Below, piece after piece: positions 6,678 to 15,091 of a stretch of DNA of 64,000 nucleotides. The position numbers were made by a program, and so were the translations under genes. Source of the DNA: Lachnospiraceae bacterium. GTDB lineage: Bacteria > Bacillota > Clostridia > Lachnospirales > Lachnospiraceae. The notes beneath the pieces are model-generated. The model saw only the letters and a program-made list of their open reading frames with translations. It made no database searches and was not told the DNA's origin. Location: NCBI GenBank assembly GCA_017994075.1, contig JAGOLM010000002.1, forward strand, positions 6,636-70,635, written 5' to 3'. The stretch's first letter is position 1. Each line of letters starts with the position of its first letter.

Positions 6678-6932
6678 CTATTCATTGCCTCTTTCTGATA
6701 CATCTTCTATTATTTCCTGCCCGGTTTTTGATAATCTGAATCTGTTCAGCGTATCAATATCCGAAACGTTTTTCTCTATTTCTGTTGCCGCTTCTGAATA
6801 AACTTGAAAGCTAAGAGTAAGCGCCATTCCTATTATTACAAGGATCATAGACATAACTCCGGCAGCTTCGACAGTATAACTGCCTTTGTGCTGTTTATAT
6901 ATTAGCCTATGCATCAAATATCTTATATTCAA
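6678..6932 (-). CDS. Small TadE-like minor pilin
   Basis: Class III signal HKG|SYTVEAAG (Glu at +5) followed by a hydrophobic helix. Confidence 0.75.
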   Translation of the reverse strand: MNIRYLMHRLIYKQHKGSYTVEAAGVMSMILVIIGMALTLSFQVYSEAATEIEKNVSDIDTLNRFRLSKTGQEIIEDVSERGNE

Positions 6933-7360
6933 CTTAAACTCCCTTTTCCCACGATCAGCATCAATAGACTCCCTGCCATAAGAAATGGAATATATGGGAT
7001 CCTGTCATCTTTTCTTTTTTTCTTGGCAATTATCATTATTCCTCCATATATTGCTAAAAATGTTGTTGATATCCAAATAAGAGCTATATTTCTCCAAAAT
7101 CCTAGAAATATTCCTGTAAGCATAAGCACCAGCCCATCTCCTATACCTATCTTTTCTCCGGTACTCTTACTAATTATTAATACAGCTACACCTGTTCCCA
7201 ATCCGCCAAGTACATCAAAAGTGCCTATTCTCTGAAATATCACATGCATCAGAACACCAATTAATGCAAAGGACAATACCAATATATCTCTGACCTTATG
7301 ACTTTTTATATCTTCTACACTTAATATCCCAAGCATTACTATTAGACTCAGACTTTCCAT
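6929..7360 (-). CDS. A24 prepilin peptidase (second copy)
   Basis: Both catalytic Asp motifs present (SVEDIK, IGIGDG). Start moved to ATG 7360 after AGGAG. Confidence 0.85.
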   Translation of the reverse strand: MESLSLIVMLGILSVEDIKSHKVRDILVLSFALIGVLMHVIFQRIGTFDVLGGLGTGVAVLIISKSTGEKIGIGDGLVLMLTGIFLGFWRNIALIWISTTFLAIYGGIMIIAKKKRKDDRIPYIPFLMAGSLLMLIVGKGSLS

Positions 7361-7374
7361 TTTATCTCCTTTTC

Positions 7375-8241
7375 CTACCTTCCCGAACATTTTGGACATG
7401 GTCTGTATTTCTTAATTGCTTCTTCAAGTGTGATCCGCTGCAATGTTCTTTTTAGACCACTGCATTTTAAACTGCTGTGATAAGTGTTTCCATATGTCGT
7501 GACGTAATAATAAGGTGAATGATCGTTTGCACACATCTCGCACTTGTAGTAGATACCTTGTTGATAATTTCTTACCTTTTTAATACTTTCTTTTGAAACT
7601 TCTTTTATAGATAATTTTAGATATGGACAAGTCTTATTTTGGTGATAGTCCTCTCCCTCCGGGGTAACATAGACATATTCCTTGTTGTCTTCCATATCCG
7701 GAGTCCATCCAACAAACCTCCTGGCTGATGCGACATCATGAACTTTAAAATACTGTTCTGATATCAAGTCTCCTACTATATTCATAGAAAATACGCAGTC
7801 CATATTTATTTCCGTGTCCGTTATCTCCGTTTTTGAAAAATCCAATCCTCCTAACCCACCTTTTATATAAGGAAGTGAAATTGTCCTTTTTTCAATTTCT
7901 TTTTTTGCAGAATTTATTAAGATTGTTTTTTGCAAAAATAAATTTGTTTTATCTTTATTTTCTTCATCACCAGGTATTTTCTCTGTGATTTTATCTGCCA
8001 TTTTTTCAATATTATCTCCAAACGCTGCTGCCTTCCTCGCGGATAACACCATGCTTTCCTTGATGACATATTGCGCTGTGATCAGCCTTATGTATATAAG
8101 AGCCGTTACGAATATAAACATAAATATTGAAAATGAAACTGCTGCCTCTATAGAATATGAAGCTTCTTTTTTTCTCAGGATGAATAACGGTGTCTCTTTT
8201 TTTATTACATAATGCCTAAAGATTGTCTGATCCTGACCCAA
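7375..8241 (-). CDS. tadE: TadE-family minor pilin with tandem C-terminal Cys/His (Zn-binding-like) domains
   Basis: KEA|SYSIEAAV leader plus TM helix. Two YVT..G..YH....C..L...Y..C..C units. TTG start after GAGAGG. Confidence 0.75.
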   Translation of the reverse strand: MGQDQTIFRHYVIKKETPLFILRKKEASYSIEAAVSFSIFMFIFVTALIYIRLITAQYVIKESMVLSARKAAAFGDNIEKMADKITEKIPGDEENKDKTNLFLQKTILINSAKKEIEKRTISLPYIKGGLGGLDFSKTEITDTEINMDCVFSMNIVGDLISEQYFKVHDVASARRFVGWTPDMEDNKEYVYVTPEGEDYHQNKTCPYLKLSIKEVSKESIKKVRNYQQGIYYKCEMCANDHSPYYYVTTYGNTYHSSLKCSGLKRTLQRITLEEAIKKYRPCPKCSGR

Positions 8242-8362
8242 ATTATAAATTTCCTCTCTTTTTTAAAAATTCTATTTTTTAACTACTTGCCTGGATATAT
8301 TTTCTACCCATTTGTGATAATGATATTCTCATCATCTATATAAAAAGAAACACCGTTATTCA
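8181..8362. repeat. 21-bp inverted repeat (one mismatch) enclosing 140 bp
   Basis: 8181-8201 TGAATAACGGTGTCTCTTTTT versus 8342-8362 AAAAAGAAACACCGTTATTCA. Confidence 0.9.
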
Positions 8363-9916
8363 CCCTGTTTTCTTCCTAAGGTAAGTCATCTCCTCGTCCC
8401 TTTGGTATGCATACCCTTTTATAAGTTCTGGCACATCCGTAAAAATCGGGAAAATAGTATCTGCCTTATACTCCATTCGGATTCTGGCGGAATATAATAG
8501 TCGATCCATTCTTATATTCTCCATTCCTTCTAATTGACTAAGGGAATTTTCTATAATATCCATTGTCCTATAGGCAGCAGTTTTCTCGGCTTTAAAATAC
8601 ATAAGAAATCTAATATAACTTTCATAGGATAATCCACTTTCTACCGATTTTGCCTGAGCTCCATCCCGAAGAAGCGTTGGAAGAGAAGTGAGCTCACTTG
8701 TCCATTCTGTTTGAGTTTTAATCAGCGGTACTTTTTTTCCATCCATAATCGCCCTAACATCCAGTACACTTTCCGCATAGGCCCATCCTGCAATTATCCC
8801 TGTCTTTACTGCTTCTATTAAAATTGGATTAGCTGATGCTCCTGCGATTGAAATTGCCAGTGAGCCTGCATCTCCATTCTTGATCGGATCTTTGAAAATA
8901 GCCAAAACATTTTCTGATTCTCTAAATATCAATATCTGATTTATTATTTTTTTTAGGTTCTCGCCATCAGACCCAGAACCTCCCAGTATATATTCCACCT
9001 CATATTTAAGACCTGTAGTCTCTTTTTCATCAGAATACGATGACATTCTATCCATGATATATTCATTAAACATGACTCGATTAATAGCACTTGGGGATTC
9101 TACCTCTTTGGTTCCCTTCTCTATTATTCTTTTCTCTAGAATATTGTCGGTGGACATCACCTTATCCGAAACTTTTTTCCCCTTTGGCAGAAAAAATGAA
9201 AGCGTTTCCTTACCCTTTTGATCCTTCGCCGTTTTCATCGGGTCCTCTGTGTCACCCCATTGCTTTTCGGTGTATTTATTTTTGCTTTGCTCTTGATCCG
9301 TCTTTTCAGAACTATTGGCAAGTTCACTTTTTCCATTTGGTTCTTTGCTTTTTGTTTTTTCTTTTTCTATATCTTGAAGAGCTTTTTCTCCATTTTCTAT
9401 GTCTTGCATCATAGTATCATCAGCTGTTGCTCCAGTTTTGCCTTTATTAACAAGGTTCATCAGTTCATCAACTGTCTTAAGCGGAATGGTTTCAAATTCT
9501 TTTTGAGCTGCAAGCCTGATAAATGCTGATCCGTTATTATCTGTAAGAAGTCCATAATCATCGATGCTGCATGATGACGGAATTGCTCGTATAAAATCTA
9601 TCCCATCATCTATATAAGGATTACCATTCTTTTCCATGGATTTTATAAGCTTCTTTTCAATTCCAGACAGATTATCACTATCCCGTCCAAGGGACATATC
9701 TACCGCCAATATCCCATAATCGTCCCAAAGATTTTTTTGATATATTGATTCAAGATAATCCCTTGATGTATGTGAAATGATCTTGGTCTCCTGTTTTATT
9801 GCAAGCTGCCTGATACCTTCCGCAAGAATAAAAACAACTGACAATGTAAAAAGCAGAATCATTGCCAGGAATATACTTACGCTCCCGCTTCTCTTTTTAT
9901 AGAAAATATTCATCAT
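8360..9916 (-). CDS. Large TadG-like pseudopilin (DUF5702-like)
   Basis: KRSG|SVSIFLAMILL leader. Motifs YEVEYILGG and RESENV...GIIAGWAYAES. Directly downstream of flp. Confidence 0.7.
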   Translation of the reverse strand: MMNIFYKKRSGSVSIFLAMILLFTLSVVFILAEGIRQLAIKQETKIISHTSRDYLESIYQKNLWDDYGILAVDMSLGRDSDNLSGIEKKLIKSMEKNGNPYIDDGIDFIRAIPSSCSIDDYGLLTDNNGSAFIRLAAQKEFETIPLKTVDELMNLVNKGKTGATADDTMMQDIENGEKALQDIEKEKTKSKEPNGKSELANSSEKTDQEQSKNKYTEKQWGDTEDPMKTAKDQKGKETLSFFLPKGKKVSDKVMSTDNILEKRIIEKGTKEVESPSAINRVMFNEYIMDRMSSYSDEKETTGLKYEVEYILGGSGSDGENLKKIINQILIFRESENVLAIFKDPIKNGDAGSLAISIAGASANPILIEAVKTGIIAGWAYAESVLDVRAIMDGKKVPLIKTQTEWTSELTSLPTLLRDGAQAKSVESGLSYESYIRFLMYFKAEKTAAYRTMDIIENSLSQLEGMENIRMDRLLYSARIRMEYKADTIFPIFTDVPELIKGYAYQRDEEMTYLRKKTG

Positions 9917-10098
9917 ACCTTGTTCGCATTATTTGACACTTTTTTAAATATATTGTTAACAAGATCTGTGATCTGCTCTTTAAAAATAAGGACCAAAGAA
10001 ATTGCTACAACCAACAAAAGCACTACCTCCAATACGCTAGCTCCACTTTCATCATCAATAAAATCTTTGATCTCATTTTTTAACTCAATTAGTTTCAT
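9913..10098 (-). CDS. flp: Flp1-like major pilin
   Basis: 61 aa. DDESG|ASVLEVVLLL (Gly at -1, Glu at +5) followed by a hydrophobic helix. GAGG RBS. Confidence 0.9.
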   Translation of the reverse strand: MKLIELKNEIKDFIDDESGASVLEVVLLLVVAISLVLIFKEQITDLVNNIFKKVSNNANKV

Positions 10099-10145
10099 AT
10101 ATATTGCATACCTCGCTTCTATAACTACTTTTCTATTTTTTTTAT

Positions 10146-10215
10146 TTCTTATTTAAAATTCTTTATTCAAAGTTCTTTATTTAAAACTTTTTATTTAAAG
10201 TCCTCTATTTTAAAA
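10146..10215. repeat. Five degenerate tandem ~14-bp units upstream of flp
   Basis: TTCTTATTTAAAA / TTCTTTATTCAAAG / TTCTTTATTTAAAA / CTTTTTATTTAAAG / TCCTCTATTTTAAAA. Confidence 0.75.
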
Positions 10216-10220
10216 AATTC

Positions 10221-11495
10221 TCATATCGATATTCCCCACATAGCAGGAACCATTAATACAACCATAACTATTCCAAGTATCCCCATAAGTGGAATTAATA
10301 GCCTCGTAGATATTTTCTCACCGGCCATTCTTATTCTTTGTCGCTCCCTGGTTTCTGCATCTATAGCTTCTCTTTCAAGTTTTGCCTGCATATCTTCAGT
10401 TCCAAGTCTAAGATTTTGGGTAAGTATGGTTGATAATTTTCTAAATACCCTGTCATCTCTGCCCATTCTTTCATATGCTTCCATTTCCGAGGTTCCGGAT
10501 TGTATCAGCCTGGTAATTTTTAAGACCGAGTCATATCCGGCTCTACATTCTGTCTTGATTTCTAATATCGATTCACTATAGTCTCTTGTTATTATTTCGA
10601 ATGACTTTTTTACTGTCATTCCGCAACTCACAAAAAGTGACAGTTTTCGAATTATTTCAGGATAATCACGTTCTAGGTCCTCATTTCTTTTCTTTTTCTT
10701 AGTCTTTAGAATCTCTTTTTCTCTAAGAGGCCATATAATTATAAGAAGTAATCCCAATGCACATATGATCTCTCCCCTTTTTTCCATTGGCTTCTTCCAA
10801 TTTATTTTTTTCCCATAGATAGTGTCAGGTAAGACAAATCTTTCTTTTTCTGGCACTGATCTATCCTTGTTTTTCACTAAGTTCTGCACTAGTTTTACGA
10901 AATCTTCTTGTTCATTTATGTCCGGCTTCATAACGACAAACGAAAAATTGTAAGTTTCCTCCATGTCATCGCAGGCAAGATTAACAATGGCATCAACCAT
11001 TTCCCTGTCTTCTATGGACTCATTTGTAATTACTCCCTTTGATGTCACCAGATCATCTCGACTAAAATTCCATGTAGCAGATACCTTCCCATCCCGATAT
11101 TCGCTTCTCATAACTACTGGTTTCTTTATTTTATCTATACTTTTATTTTTCCCCGGAAAAGTTCTGTCAATTTCCTTTTCCGCCTCTTTTATATATTTTT
11201 CCTTTTCCATTTTACTGAGCTTTCTATTGTTGATCTCAATTTCCAGAGAATCCTTTTCTTTTCCTCTGGCAACCTCTAGAACTTCTTTCCTGGAACCTTC
11301 GCCTGCTTCATTTCTGATTATTTCTCCATCATAGAAAACCCGATTTTGGAGATAGTCTACGGTGAATGTCAGGATTCCAATTATTTCTAGAGCAAAAATC
11401 ATTTTCCCTATAAAACTATTTTTAATAAAAGGATTGTTACTTTTCCTATATAAAAGAATCGTTACAAAAAAAATTATTAATGTTATCATATCCAC
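10221..11495 (-). CDS. tadC: TadC/T2SS-F platform protein with large extracytoplasmic insertion
   Basis: C-terminal T2SS-F segment (DYPEIIRKLSLFVSCGMTV...AGEKISTRLLIPL). About 190-aa soluble region between the TM segments. Confidence 0.8.
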   Translation of the reverse strand: MDMITLIIFFVTILLYRKSNNPFIKNSFIGKMIFALEIIGILTFTVDYLQNRVFYDGEIIRNEAGEGSRKEVLEVARGKEKDSLEIEINNRKLSKMEKEKYIKEAEKEIDRTFPGKNKSIDKIKKPVVMRSEYRDGKVSATWNFSRDDLVTSKGVITNESIEDREMVDAIVNLACDDMEETYNFSFVVMKPDINEQEDFVKLVQNLVKNKDRSVPEKERFVLPDTIYGKKINWKKPMEKRGEIICALGLLLIIIWPLREKEILKTKKKKRNEDLERDYPEIIRKLSLFVSCGMTVKKSFEIITRDYSESILEIKTECRAGYDSVLKITRLIQSGTSEMEAYERMGRDDRVFRKLSTILTQNLRLGTEDMQAKLEREAIDAETRERQRIRMAGEKISTRLLIPLMGILGIVMVVLMVPAMWGISI

Positions 11496-12254
11496 CTATA
11501 TCTTTTCAGTGATCTTCTTGCCCAACAAAAGGCAAAAAATATATGCGATCATACAAGCAGTCATGATTATGTGTCCCGCCGCACCAGCATACATAGGCAT
11601 AATAAATCCTGCTGCCGTAAGTCGAATGTATATAATGATAAATACTGGCATTATGCTCATTATTTTCATCTCCAGCCTCTTTTCCGCAGTAATGACATCG
11701 ATGTCCATCATGATCTCAATATTCTCGCTTATCTTATCTGCTGTATGACGTATGTTCCTGACATAATCACCGCCCATCCTTTTGGCATATATAAATATTT
11801 CAGCGAATTCTTTCACTTCATCCAATCCGATTTCATTTGAAAAATCCCAAAAAGCTTCTTCAATTGACCTATTCAGGCAAACTTCCGAATTGATCTTGTG
11901 AAGTTTATCTTTCATATAGGATTCATCCCCATACTGGATGCAAAGCTCTCTTTCTTCCTCGAGAAACGCCTTCTCTATTGATAGACCACCTGATAGAAAT
12001 GAGGCAACACCAATTAAGAATTCTCGATATTCTTCTCTAAATTTTCTGACGAAGTCTTCCCTTGCCTTTTTCTTCTGATATAAATTATTTATCACGTAAA
12101 TAATCGGAAATATGACCATTCCCCAAATGCTGTCATATACAATCCAAGACACCAGAATTGCCTCTGTAAAACTTATAAGCACTGTTTTTATTCTAGGTTG
12201 AATCCTGCTATTTCTGCCTTCCCTTTGTTCTGAAGTATGTCCTTTTTTACCCAT
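11496..12254 (-). CDS. tadB: TadB/T2SS-F platform protein
   Basis: LSGGLSIEKAF...EVKEFAEIFIYAKRMGGD...TAEKRLEMKIMSIMP. Lies directly downstream of cpaF. Confidence 0.85.
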   Translation of the reverse strand: MGKKGHTSEQREGRNSRIQPRIKTVLISFTEAILVSWIVYDSIWGMVIFPIIYVINNLYQKKKAREDFVRKFREEYREFLIGVASFLSGGLSIEKAFLEEERELCIQYGDESYMKDKLHKINSEVCLNRSIEEAFWDFSNEIGLDEVKEFAEIFIYAKRMGGDYVRNIRHTADKISENIEIMMDIDVITAEKRLEMKIMSIMPVFIIIYIRLTAAGFIMPMYAGAAGHIIMTACMIAYIFCLLLGKKITEKI

Positions 12255-13390
12255 TTGTTTCCTTCTAATTCGTACAGCACCCCTAGCTGTATATCACCAT
12301 TCATAATTCCTCTGACCTCGGCTATTTCTGTTACCCTTCTCTCTCCTGATGCCATTTTCTCAAGATGTACCATAATATCCAATCCAGAGGCAATCTGATT
12401 TTTTATAACTTCTATTGGAAGGTTCTCTGCCATAAGTGACATGCTAATAATTCTAGATATCATATCTTCTGTAGAATTGCCGTGACCGGTACTAAGTCCT
12501 CCATCGTGTCCTGTATTAAATGCCTGCAGCATCTCAAGAGTTTCTGCTCCTCTACATTCACCTACAATGATTCTGTCAGGTCGCATCCTAAGACTCGTTC
12601 GAACCAGATCTCTGATCGTTATCTCTAATCTACCTTCTAGATTTTTATTTCTTCCTTCTAATCTGACCAGATTTTGAACGCCTATGACTCTTAATTCAGC
12701 CGAATCTTCAATAGTTATCACTCGTTCATGTGGGGCGATAAATTCTGTAAGTGCATTTAAGAATGTTGTTTTGCCACTTGATGTTCCCCCTGAAATAAAA
12801 ATGTTGTATCTGCTAACAATTGCCTTTTTCAGGAAATCACTAATTTCTTCATTGATAGTACCAAGTGTCAACAGTTTTTCCATATCTATTGACTCTTTGG
12901 GGAATTTTCTAATGGATATCGTTCCTCCATCAACCGCTACCGGCGGTAATACGATATTCACTCTAGATCCATCCTCTAACCTTGTATCAACGATCGGAAC
13001 ACTTTCATTCACGATTTTATTTTGAGATGCCACAATTCTCTGTATGATATCTTCCAATTTACCCGGTTCTGAAAAATACTTATCAGACTTTTGTATTCTT
13101 CCGTTCTTTTCATAAAAGATATTTAAAGGACCATTGACCATTATTTCTGAAATGTTGTCATCATCCAAAAATTCCTGGATAATATCTAATTTTCGAAGCG
13201 AATAAAAAACATTTTTTTCAATTTGCTTTCTTCTCTCTATGCCAATAGATGTTTCCTTACCTTTTTGGCATATTATCTCTCTTATAGTGCTAAGTACTTC
13301 TCCATCACTTAGCTCTCTATCAAGGTCTAAATCCTTCTTTACCTGTTGACGGATGATCTCTACTATTTTTTCTTCTTGTAATTCTTCCAC
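12188..13390 (-). CDS. cpaF: CpaF/TadA pilus assembly ATPase
   Basis: Walker A GGTSSGKTT, Asp box TIEDSAEL, Walker B RPDRIIVGE, His box NTGHDGGLSTGH. Confidence 0.95.
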   Translation of the reverse strand: MEELQEEKIVEIIRQQVKKDLDLDRELSDGEVLSTIREIICQKGKETSIGIERRKQIEKNVFYSLRKLDIIQEFLDDDNISEIMVNGPLNIFYEKNGRIQKSDKYFSEPGKLEDIIQRIVASQNKIVNESVPIVDTRLEDGSRVNIVLPPVAVDGGTISIRKFPKESIDMEKLLTLGTINEEISDFLKKAIVSRYNIFISGGTSSGKTTFLNALTEFIAPHERVITIEDSAELRVIGVQNLVRLEGRNKNLEGRLEITIRDLVRTSLRMRPDRIIVGECRGAETLEMLQAFNTGHDGGLSTGHGNSTEDMISRIISMSLMAENLPIEVIKNQIASGLDIMVHLEKMASGERRVTEIAEVRGIMNGDIQLGVLYELEGNKWVKKDILQNKGKAEIAGFNLE

Positions 13391-13400
13391 TTTTTCTCAC

Positions 13401-14438
13401 CTATCCCACCGCTCTTACTACTCTGTCGTATCTCTTTACATTGTTTATCCACTTGCCTGGATTATCGTGCATAAGTTCAACTATATCGAATTTTCTTCCA
13501 AACTCTTTATCTCGATCCTCTAATCGAACCTCCTGAACAGATATGTTTAGCTTCTTTCTCTCCAGATAGTACTCATATTTTTTCATGCATTCTTCAGCGT
13601 ACTCATCATTTCCTTCCACAAGTATGATCTCGCTTAGCCCCTTCATGATTCCATTTATTTCATTTCCCATTTCTCCTATTACAATCACAACCACATCAAA
13701 AGGACTTTGTTTTAATTTTGCTGCCAGTTGGCTCCACTGCTCTTTTTCTATTTCCCACAGTTCTGCAGGATCCGACACCGGAGCCATATACGCCAGTCCA
13801 TCATAGAAATTGACATAATCTCCTAAAGATATTTCATACTCCGCTGTCTCTGTCGACAATGCATACATATAATCTGTAAGGTTATGGATCGGATCTTTTC
13901 CTACCACTTTATTTAAATAGGAATTTGCTTCGAGATCCACTAAGAGAACTTTTCCATTGTTTTTGCAAATATTACTGTAGACAAGTGAAAATGGAAGTTT
14001 CAGTCTGTTGTGACTAGGAGAATAAACACCTATCAGCTTACTGTCGCTTCCTGAACAATTCTTAGAAGCATTTTTTAATGTAAACCGCTCCAGTTTCTCC
14101 ATAAATGTTCTCATATCTTGAAATTTATATAGATGATTCATGCCTATCTCCGGAACATCATTGGCACCTAAGAGCTGTATATCCACCGATTTCCCCTTGC
14201 TTTTATCTTGGAGTTTAATTCCATCATCTCTATCACCATCTAGTAATTCATCATGGATATTCCCGATAAAATCTTTTGTCAATAGTCTTACATCAAAAGT
14301 GTTGCTTGATGAAATGTATCCATCTGTATCCGAGAAGCATGTGATATCATACTCGTCACTGTCTCCCATCAGGTATCCCACCAACGCTCTTAAGTAGCTG
14401 ACATCCATATCGCATATTAGCATCTTTGTTTTTTTCAT
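13401..14438 (-). CDS. TadZ/CpaE-like protein (receiver-like N-terminus, degenerate ParA/MinD-like domain)
   Basis: LICDMDVSY receiver-like start. IGVYSP motif with no GKT. VLLVDLE strand. Sits just upstream of cpaF. Start moved to ATG 14438 after GGAGGT. Confidence 0.65.
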   Translation of the reverse strand: MKKTKMLICDMDVSYLRALVGYLMGDSDEYDITCFSDTDGYISSSNTFDVRLLTKDFIGNIHDELLDGDRDDGIKLQDKSKGKSVDIQLLGANDVPEIGMNHLYKFQDMRTFMEKLERFTLKNASKNCSGSDSKLIGVYSPSHNRLKLPFSLVYSNICKNNGKVLLVDLEANSYLNKVVGKDPIHNLTDYMYALSTETAEYEISLGDYVNFYDGLAYMAPVSDPAELWEIEKEQWSQLAAKLKQSPFDVVVIVIGEMGNEINGIMKGLSEIILVEGNDEYAEECMKKYEYYLERKKLNISVQEVRLEDRDKEFGRKFDIVELMHDNPGKWINNVKRYDRVVRAVG

Positions 14439-14440
14439 TT

Positions 14441-14965
14441 TTACCTCCAAATCAATACAATAAGTTCTGTTAAAAAAGCGCCTATAAACATAAATGGTAC
14501 CATTGCTATTTTTCCCGACTCCGCCTCATCCCTGGGATAATGTATGATTTTCTTTTCAATTGATATTTGATAGATATAATTGCCTAACACATATATCCTA
14601 CGCATCAATTCCCCACGAAATATCATTACCGTCAGTGAATATGTCCCTGCTGTTATAAATATCATTCCTGTAAAAAGAACCGCCCATTCCCTTGGTACCA
14701 TTGAAGATATAACTGCAATCACTTTAATATCTCCGGCTCCCAATACTCTTGCTGCAAATAATATAAATAGAATTATGATCGGACATATGAGACTGATTAA
14801 CCATTCCTCAATCCCATTAATGTTTCCGGCTACTGCAGCTCTTATCAATGTCACTATCAGTCCTATCAGAATATATACATTTGGAATTCTTTTTTTCTTA
14901 AAATCAAATATTGTTGCCCCTGATAGGAATATCAGGATAAAAGCTATATCTATTTCATTCGGCAT
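14441..14965 (-). CDS. cpaA: A24 prepilin peptidase CpaA/TadV
   Basis: IFDFKKKRIPN and LGAGDIK catalytic Asp motifs. First gene of the Tad operon. Start at 14965 after GAGGAG. Confidence 0.88.
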   Translation of the reverse strand: MPNEIDIAFILIFLSGATIFDFKKKRIPNVYILIGLIVTLIRAAVAGNINGIEEWLISLICPIIILFILFAARVLGAGDIKVIAVISSMVPREWAVLFTGMIFITAGTYSLTVMIFRGELMRRIYVLGNYIYQISIEKKIIHYPRDEAESGKIAMVPFMFIGAFLTELIVLIWR

Positions 14966-15091
14966 TTTATCTCCTCTCATCGTGTAGAGATTATATTCTC
15001 CGTTTACCCTGATTTACATAGCACCTCGTGCAAGTTTCATTTTTGTTAAATATGCTGAAATTTATCTTTTTTGCGATTAATTTATTCTTTC

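Follow-up and report, generated by a model that had tools for sequence, protein, structure and literature searches.

A TadE-like minor pilin of Lachnospiraceae carrying two tandem ADA_N-like zinc-type modules, a candidate ligand-binding subunit of the Tad pilus

The window analysed here is a stretch of 64,000 nucleotides from a Lachnospiraceae bacterium, and all positions below refer to it. A Pfam scan places the gene of interest, which encodes a pilin with a zinc-type tandem domain at its C-terminal end, within a complete monoderm Tad locus with a TadA-family ATPase. CpaF, TadB/C, Flp and prepilin peptidase are all present in this locus, and a DUF6382-FHA protein is also among its genes. The genes and features are as follows.

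6678..6932, (-) strand: 84-residue TadE-like pilin (KG|SYTVEAAG), recognized from its sequence; the best match in the genome to TadE (PF07811), at 13.2 bits, which is below the cut-off of that family
6929..7399, (-) strand: second A24 prepilin peptidase (Pfam Peptidase_A24), directly downstream of the zinc-module pilin
7375..8241, (-) strand: zinc-module pilin, a 288-residue TadE-like modular minor pilin
7378..7515, (-) strand: zinc-type module 2, residues 243-288, H-x4-C-x21-C-x2-C (YYVTTYGNTYH...YRPCPKC)
7477-7479, 7462-7464, 7396-7398 and 7387-7389, (-) strand: predicted ligands of module 2, H255, C260, C282 and C285, respectively
7522..7680, (-) strand: zinc-type module 1, residues 188-240, H-x4-C-x28-C-x2-C (YVYVTPEGEDYH...YYKCEMC)
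7642-7644, 7627-7629, 7540-7542 and 7531-7533, (-) strand: predicted ligands of module 1, H200, C205, C234 and C237, respectively
7681..8076, (-) strand: pilin body, residues 56-187, in which a beta-hairpin (E144-154, E164-174) comes after the helices; AF2 pLDDT 75-89
8077..8160, (-) strand: hydrophobic helix alpha-1N of the pilin, residues 28-55 (SYSIEAAVSFSIFMFIFVTALIYIRLIT), from the alignment of homologues
8161..8241, (-) strand: predicted leader peptide, residues 1-27, ending in ...KKEA27, with a predicted prepilin-peptidase cut before S28
8360..9916, (-) strand: 518-residue DUF5702 protein with a pilin-like N-terminus (Pfam PF18960, E = 8e-80)
9913..10098, (-) strand: Flp major pilin of 61 residues (G|ASVLE; Pfam Flp1_like, E = 2e-21)
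10221..14980, (-) strand: Tad machinery, comprising TadC, TadB, the CpaF ATPase, a TadZ-like protein and the first A24 peptidase (Pfam T2SSF and T2SSE; conserved synteny)

The zinc-module pilin gene starts with a TTG codon (8239-8241), upstream of which lies GAGAGGAAA, and ends with a TAG codon (7375-7377). Bases 7375-7680 of the (-) strand encode residues 188-288 and the stop codon of this reading frame. The second A24 peptidase probably starts at the ATG at 7358-7360, which is preceded by the RBS AAAGGAGA. The arrangement of these genes is similar in related bacteria. The order Flp, DUF5702, zinc-module pilin, A24 peptidase is kept in all five of the other Lachnospiraceae genera compared and in two other families, and over the eight loci of the synteny comparison the order is conserved in eight. 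The DUF5702 gene lies immediately upstream of the zinc-module pilin gene in each of the eight, while the position of the second A24 peptidase is kept in five of them.

The N-terminal part of the zinc-module pilin has the class-III signal of prepilins, ...KKEA|SYSIEAAV (A27|S-Y-S-I-E32), which is followed by the hydrophobic helix AAVSFSIFMFIFVTALIYI. As in Flp, the Glu at position +5 follows a small residue at the predicted cleavage site, and the signal suggests that prepilin peptidase cuts before S28. A word-index search yields 12 close homologues. Glu32 (+5) is invariant in the alignment of 13 homologues, in which position -1 is either Gly or Ala. The conservation set used below consists of 137 tandem-bearing representatives of 50%-identity clusters, 111 of which have the [G/A]|xxxxE motif and the hydrophobic helix. 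The others are mostly fragments or truncated or mis-started sequences, with a few small secreted or lipoprotein forms.

In the AF2 model, a long helix at the N-terminus is followed by a small beta-sheet body, then by a linker of low confidence and finally by the modules. The long helix extends over residues 18-73, and the leader region (residues 1-24) has pLDDT values below 50. The pilin body ends in a flexible linker, GWTPDMEDN, in which residues 181-183 also have pLDDT values below 50. The protein is thus built as a modular type IV pilin, with a pilin module, a linker and a module that is also found on unrelated proteins.

The Pfam TadE family (PF07811) is matched by four of the 13 family members, with a best E value of 3.5e-7. 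The zinc-module pilin itself has no match to PF07811 above the 22.9-bit cut-off and is absent among the TadE matches of its genome. Since the pilin itself is unmatched while four of its 13 relatives match, its membership of the TadE family rests on transitive homology. The Tad locus, the N-terminus, the TadE homologues, the AF2 model and the synteny therefore identify a modular minor pilin. An initial sequence-only reading had taken the protein for a minor pilin of the Tad locus, and the pilin N-terminus, the TadE-matching homologues and the synteny of the locus bear this out. It is very probable that the protein is a modular minor pilin of the Tad type which bears two His-Cys3 modules of the ADA_N-like kind.

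The two modules are repeats of each other. They share 41% identity over 37 residues within the protein (BLASTP, E = 4e-7), and their family profiles match with an hhalign probability of 99.1%. Six of the eight predicted ligands, H200, C205, H255, C260, C282 and C285, are invariant in the 137 cluster representatives, while C234 is retained in 136 and C237 in 131 of them. Residues R224, T248, G251 and R265 are likewise invariant. Conservation of the ligands over the 137 representatives is far beyond chance, and all eight ligands are conserved together with E32 in the 12 word-index homologues. The self-match, the profile match and the near-invariant ligands confirm the two homologous units that had been noticed in the sequence. 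The tandem domain has a pLDDT of 87 in the AF2 model, where each module has the order b1-b2-[H,C]-b3-helix-b4-[CxxC], so that a set of four ligands occurs twice, two of them after strand 2 and two in the CxxC knuckle after the helix. From these features, it is likely that the His-Cys3 modules bind zinc.

The C-terminal 103 residues have a net charge of +8 and a pI of 9.2, with a net charge of +7 for module 2. The earlier description of this region as basic holds for the source protein; across the family it is a mere tendency, the mean charge of the tandem domain being +4.0 +/- 4.5, with positive values in 80% of 111 full-length representatives.

The Ada N-terminal domain binds one Zn2+, binds DNA and becomes methylated at one of its ligand Cys residues. 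The methyl acceptor is taken here to be Cys38, the first ligand, at the position of which the pilin modules have a His; it is given as Cys69 in PMC12353581. The same paper describes the strand/helix/CxxC order of the ADA N domain, with which the order of elements in the AF2 modules agrees, and presents the ECOD 2025 superfamily "ADA_N-like", whose parent is the Ada N-terminal domain (PF02805, PDB 1EYF and 1U8B).

Kinship between the modules and this domain is visible in steps. Pfam and NCBIfam scans of the pilin and of the isolated modules give no usable match (HVO_0758 only, E = 0.007-0.06, below the cut-off), and PF02805 has no match on the modules at E <= 10 (Pfam cut-off 23 bits). Relatives of the modules score 16-19 bits against PF02805, and among 40 sister proteins only one has E <= 0.001. 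A search of 151 Bacillota genomes with PF02805 finds two classes above the cut-off. The first is true Ada, where the domain is N-terminal and has the pattern C-x3-C...C-x2-C. The second is weaker, has the pattern 'YIGNxNSKKFH-x3-C...GYxPCxxCxP' and is located C-terminally on other proteins. A third group, found in Clostridia with the pilin profile, has the pattern 'VYITxTGxKYH-x3/4-C...GYTPCxxCxPP' and forms an intermediate family. In hhalign comparisons, this family matches module 2 with a probability of 98.7% (score 67), module 1 with 97.9%, the Pfam-recognized H-x3-C class with 98.3% and true Ada with 96.0% (score 42), the last with all four ligand columns aligned; column shuffles used as a control score 9 +/- 2. 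The His of the modules aligns with the first Cys of Ada in these profiles. The direct match between module and Ada profiles is weak (28.7%), yet it lies about 5 standard deviations above the shuffles.

Searches against known structures agree with these profiles in part. When the HMM of the intermediate family is compared with 177,635 PDB sequences, E. coli Ada entries (1U8B, 1ZGW, 1WPK and 1ADN/1EYF) take the top four ranks, with marginal E values of 0.03-0.05 and with the helix-knuckle alone covered. Ada is absent from the matches of the tandem-domain HMM to PDB sequences; the Pygopus PHD finger that this search brings up (E = 0.02) was judged a coincidence of Cys pattern. A Foldseek search, which had been suggested as a check for an Ada-like fold, returned no Ada structure from the PDB, with nothing below E = 0.6 for the full-length model and nothing below 4.7 for the tandem-domain model. 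This outcome is treated as uninformative, not contradictory, for the kinship. The label 'Ada-like' given in the sequence-only reading therefore stands by way of one intermediate family, and does not stand on Pfam, NCBIfam or Foldseek matches. Because of the stepwise profile chain with its shuffle controls, the PDB ranking and the AF2 element order, we accept from sequence comparison that the modules and the Ada zinc domain are distantly homologous, with His replacing the first Cys in the modules.

Sister modules are found on many kinds of protein. All ten of the Pfam-recognized H-x3-C modules that were scanned are on secreted enzymes: five MBL hydrolases, four SNases and one S1/P1-like enzyme. 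The only other copy in the source genome, encoded on contig 11, is at the C-terminus of a 362-residue lipoprotein with an Endonuclea_NS_2 domain. The pilin profile matches 40 Clostridia proteins, of which 16 have nuclease-type partners (12 MBL hydrolases, three Endonuclea_NS_2 and one SNase); other partners include seven M78 peptidases of ImmA/IrrE type, five Cu_amine_oxidN1, two Big_2 and three TadE-like proteins. Additional copies in Lachnospiraceae occur on four MBL hydrolases, two Abi_2 proteins, one DUF4236 protein and one Big_2 protein, and the relatives include membrane proteins with 8-16 module repeats. The module is thus appended to nuclease-type enzymes of four kinds, MBL-type, SNase, NS-type and S1/P1-like. 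The sequence-only reading had placed a similar module on ComEC-like MBL hydrolases and thermonucleases, and the MBL, SNase and NS-type proteins found here, one of them the lipoprotein in the source genome, agree with it.

Since four kinds of nuclease share the module and the parent domain binds DNA, a nucleic acid is the most economical reading of its ligand. Other ligands keep some probability because of the non-nuclease partners and the membrane proteins with 8-16 repeats. By analogy with these relatives, a nucleic-acid or polyanion ligand of the modules is possible, and is put forward with some doubt.

The tandem domain is widespread within one family of bacteria. An exhaustive search with its HMM gives 3025 cluster representatives at E <= 1e-3, of which 2107 remain at E <= 1e-10. 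With one genome taken per genus, 116 of 121 Lachnospiraceae genera have the domain, as do 96 of the 97 genomes of high quality, almost always as a single copy in a frame of 250-400 residues. Strong tandem matches among 300 Clostridia genomes are limited to Lachnospiraceae (10 of 10 sampled). The same 300 genomes contain a weak version of the tandem in one other Clostridia family, and single-module TadE-like proteins in further families. A word-index search with residues 186-288 alone finds two near-identical proteins and nothing further.

Each part of this protein has counterparts in known systems. The ADA_N-like domains of PMC12353581 are, like the pilin modules, small four-ligand modules in which strands, helix and CxxC knuckle succeed each other in the same way, and they are usually C-terminal on proteins with a signal peptide, including a ComEC-like MBL hydrolase of C. 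difficile. The pilin modules differ from Ada in having His in place of the first Cys and a spacing of x4, not x3, in the first ligand pair, and the pilin differs from the ADA_N-like proteins of that paper in carrying two tandem copies; a pilin graft is not in its listing. TadE/F/G-type pilins form a tip complex with variable distal modules and a dedicated peptidase in Myxococcus (PMC12075869). These TadE/F/G and KilLMN Tips likewise have a pilin N-terminus, adjoining genes for large and small pilins, a tad locus and a variable distal module, and the second peptidase of the present locus parallels KilA, which serves the Tips. By the same analogy, the DUF5702 protein is presumed to be the large (TadG-like) tip partner (PMC12075869). 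The zinc-module pilin differs from the Myxococcus Tips in its monoderm host, in having a DUF5702 protein and not TadG as its partner and in its grafted zinc finger.

Ligand-binding pilins are also known from other classes of pilus. In the type IVa pili of Streptococcus sanguinis, PilB (vWA) and PilC (lectin) are likewise pilins with a ligand-binding graft at the tip of a monoderm pilus (summarized in PMC12075869); the class is IVa there and Tad/IVc here, the grafted fold is different, and the ligand is proven there and predicted here. The role proposed for the zinc-module pilin, that of a low-abundance DNA-binding pilin at or near the tip, is the same as that of ComP of Neisseria (PMC4906244) and ComZ/PilA2 of Thermus (PMC6561018). 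However, these proteins are unrelated to it in sequence and fold, and their DNA surface, for which binding has been demonstrated, is located in a disulfide-stabilized pilin body, whereas binding by the zinc-module pilin is predicted for an appended module.

Both components are therefore of known kinds, namely the ADA_N-like superfamily (ECOD, 2025) and modular Tad tips, and their fusion in a pilin is new in the literature searched. No description of a tandem zinc module fused to a Tad minor pilin was found in literature searches on Tad, TadE and Lachnospiraceae, on zinc- or DNA-binding minor pilins and on DUF5702, and a search for 'sunset domain' as a name for the modules was without result. 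To our knowledge, there has been very little work on the Tad pili of gut anaerobes that are Gram-positive, and no ligand of these pili has been described.

Based on the sequence features and the analogies above, we tentatively propose, as quite possible, that the protein is a modular minor pilin of a monoderm Tad (type IVc) pilus whose zinc modules bind DNA or a polyanion at the tip. The class-III signal would be cut before S28 by prepilin peptidase, leaving a hydrophobic helix with Glu at +5. The zinc-module pilin, the DUF5702 pilin and the 84-residue TadE-like pilin may then form an assembly-priming complex that ends up at the tip of the pilus, a location suggested by the Myxococcus system (PMC12075869). 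The short flexible linker would display the two tandem ADA_N-like modules, each of which most likely folds round a single Zn2+ with His and three Cys as its ligands. Ada and the nuclease partners suggest, by analogy, that the modules may bind extracellular DNA by its phosphodiester backbone, or else a polyanion of a similar kind. Capture of DNA by the tip could then serve attachment to DNA-rich matrices, or could initiate an uptake that proceeds through ComEA and ComEC.

Adhesion is the classical function of Tad pili, and the zinc modules may instead act as an adhesin for a ligand other than nucleic acid, such as host mucus, dietary glycans, teichoic acids or the surface polymers of other cells. 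In that case, their association with nucleases would be a reflection of some general role in surface anchoring or in the binding of polymers. The presence of modules on Big_2, Cu_amine_oxidN1 and domain-less secreted lipoproteins, the 8-16 tandem copies on membrane-anchored proteins, the 20% of orthologous tandem domains that are not basic and the ADA_N-like domain on the C. difficile cell-wall protein Cwp27 (PMC12353581) all favour such a role. However, the commonest partners of the module are nucleases of four unrelated folds, and a glycan ligand on the cell surface is at odds with its cytoplasmic partners (Abi_2 and ImmA/IrrE-type M78). Ada, the only characterized relative, binds DNA, and on balance an adhesin of this kind appears rather unlikely. 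That the modules have no external ligand, and are zinc-stabilized structural elements that dock onto the DUF5702 or the small TadE-like pilin in building the priming complex or aid its passage through the thick cell wall, is unlikely. The strict synteny with DUF5702 and a dedicated peptidase would be expected of such elements, as would a near-universal fusion with one copy per genome. Yet the module is also readily grafted onto unrelated enzymes, which points to a function of its own. In addition, the flexible linker around residues 181-183 suggests a domain that is displayed, not buried, and a single module suffices in other Clostridia families.

The four ligands themselves point to two further readings, each of which is very improbable. 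Invariant His-Cys3 sites, and relatives with 8-16 such sites per chain, might be expected of modules that handle metal, through sensing or storage of extracellular zinc, with the multi-repeat relatives as zinc sponges. Structural Cys3His sites, however, hold zinc too tightly for exchange; the Pfam scan found no transporter or regulator in the locus, and the association with nucleases would be left unexplained. Six Cys residues in an extracytoplasmic domain could also form disulfides that stabilize it without metal. Here the odd count of three Cys per module, the invariant His at the position of the first zinc ligand of Ada and the presence of homologous modules on cytoplasmic proteins speak against disulfides, as does the strictly anaerobic life of the hosts.

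Lachnospiraceae are dominant gut commensals, few bacterial families being more abundant in the gut of humans and animals, and the zinc-module pilin provides a concrete, family-wide candidate for a ligand-binding subunit, with a soluble domain of 100 residues. If the modules bind DNA, as we tentatively propose, the ADA_N-like group of secreted domains would gain a function, it would be clear why they are so often fused to extracellular nucleases, and a mechanism of DNA capture, for horizontal gene transfer or for adhesion based on extracellular DNA, would be indicated in Lachnospiraceae. If the ligand differs from DNA, the modules would still mark the business end of the Tad pilus.

The link to transformation made in the sequence-only reading concerns Micrococcus luteus, and it agrees with the published finding that Tad pili are required for transformation there (PMC4322843). 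The Tad/Flp pilus of M. luteus is, like the present one, a Gram-positive Tad pilus, and acts with ComEA and ComEC; M. luteus is an actinobacterium, and the DNA receptor pilin was not identified in that study (PMC4322843). The check for co-occurrence that had been suggested shows ComEC, DprA and ComEA to be present in the source genome. Their presence barely discriminates, however, because these genes are near-universal in Bacillota. CpaF is the only T2SSE-family ATPase found in 32 of the 118 Lachnospiraceae genera with a T2SSE match, about a quarter, including the closed genomes G199 and G246 (E <= 1e-25, best 14 candidates scored per genome); a PilB-type pilus is additionally present in about 55% of genera. 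Full-length ComEC occurs in 29 of 31 CpaF-only genomes, and a search of 32 genomes, these 31 and the source genome, finds ComEA above the cut-off in 30. This pattern would fit an uptake of DNA that depends on Tad, as it does in M. luteus, and does not amount to linkage.

A role of the zinc-module pilin in transformation is decidedly unlikely. Improbable, too, is the more far-reaching reading in which the Lachnospiraceae Tad pilus would be a DNA-capture organelle, with the twin modules as a tip receptor that passes DNA to ComEA and ComEC, as the sole route of transformation in about a quarter of the genera, and in which the module would serve Bacillota generally as a domain for binding DNA outside the cell. 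Such a general domain would explain the presence of the module on secreted nucleases. As for other pilus systems in the source genome, a PilT/PilC cluster is present and PilB was not found. A canonical ComG operon was considered and rejected, since the second ATPase is PilT (TIGR01420, 398 bits), which scores 129 bits against a ComGA cut-off of 300.

Besides the Zn pilin, the 288-aa TadE-like minor pilin with two C-terminal zinc-type modules, the module (a predicted ADA_N-like unit of one His and three Cys) is carried by proteins of several other kinds:

G000 (source genome) contig 11, 710-1798 (locus L002 562-1650), + strand: Endonuclea_NS_2 lipoprotein, 362 aa, lipobox LSATGC
P0014-P0020, P0029 and P0074, outside the window: multi-repeat family, found with a tandem-domain HMM search
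Loci L079 (genome G577), L080 and L084: single-module TadE-like pilins from further families of Clostridia
Loci L063, L065, L068, L070, L071, L073, L076 and L086: Peptidase_M78 proteins ending in the module
Loci L040 and L044: Abi_2 proteins ending in the module

The lipoprotein, whose Endonuclea_NS_2 domain is followed by one C-terminal module (PIVYWTQNGKSYHSTSKCSTLSRS...CPKKDPCDRCH), is the only protein of G000 other than the Zn pilin to have a copy. Two of the three single-module pilins have the ligand spacing H-x5-C and a C-terminal hydrophobic tail after the module (...CEFCVLMTAE), and the pilin of G577 sits within a syntenic Tad locus.

Members of the multi-repeat family are 650-1150 aa long and share a conserved N-terminus. 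Their acidic cytoplasmic stretch, rich in Asp, Glu and Tyr, is accompanied by a single transmembrane helix (WLLLVLLPPLGIYLLWKRR), after which the module is repeated 8-16 times in tandem (YYH-x4-CSGMKNA...GKTACPxC). Against Pfam and NCBIfam the family shows no domain, barring weak sub-threshold matches. Multivalent display on the surface, as in this array, suggests that the ligand may be a polymer. The module is not confined to exported proteins, since in Clostridia it also ends apparently cytoplasmic metallopeptidases of the ImmA/IrrE type and Abi_2 abortive-infection proteins.

Two further genes lie near the Zn pilin gene in the window:

6929-7399, - strand: second A24 prepilin peptidase, probable start ATG 7358-7360
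6678-6932, - strand: 84-aa ORF, KG|SYTVEAAG, TadE (PF07811) 13.2 bits, below cut-off

For the peptidase, the most likely start is the ATG at 7358-7360, which lies five bases past AAAGGAGA, rather than position 7399; from that ATG the gene would not overlap that of the Zn pilin. It follows the Zn pilin in five of the eight Tad loci compared, and recalls KilA of Myxococcus, a peptidase dedicated to tip pilins (PMC12075869). The 84-aa ORF, the top TadE match of G000 even at its sub-cut-off score, is probably the third minor pilin of the Tad locus.

G000 also has a second type IV filament cluster:

G000 contig 20, about 9150-13080 (locus L035 2152-6077): second type IV filament cluster

Its products are a GspF/PilC-like protein, a set of four small proteins whose N-termini carry hydrophobic segments, and an ATPase of the PilT family (TIGR01420, 398 bits). 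The whole G000 assembly, 95% complete, yielded no ATPase of the PilB type; in four species of the same genus, PilB adjoins PilT.
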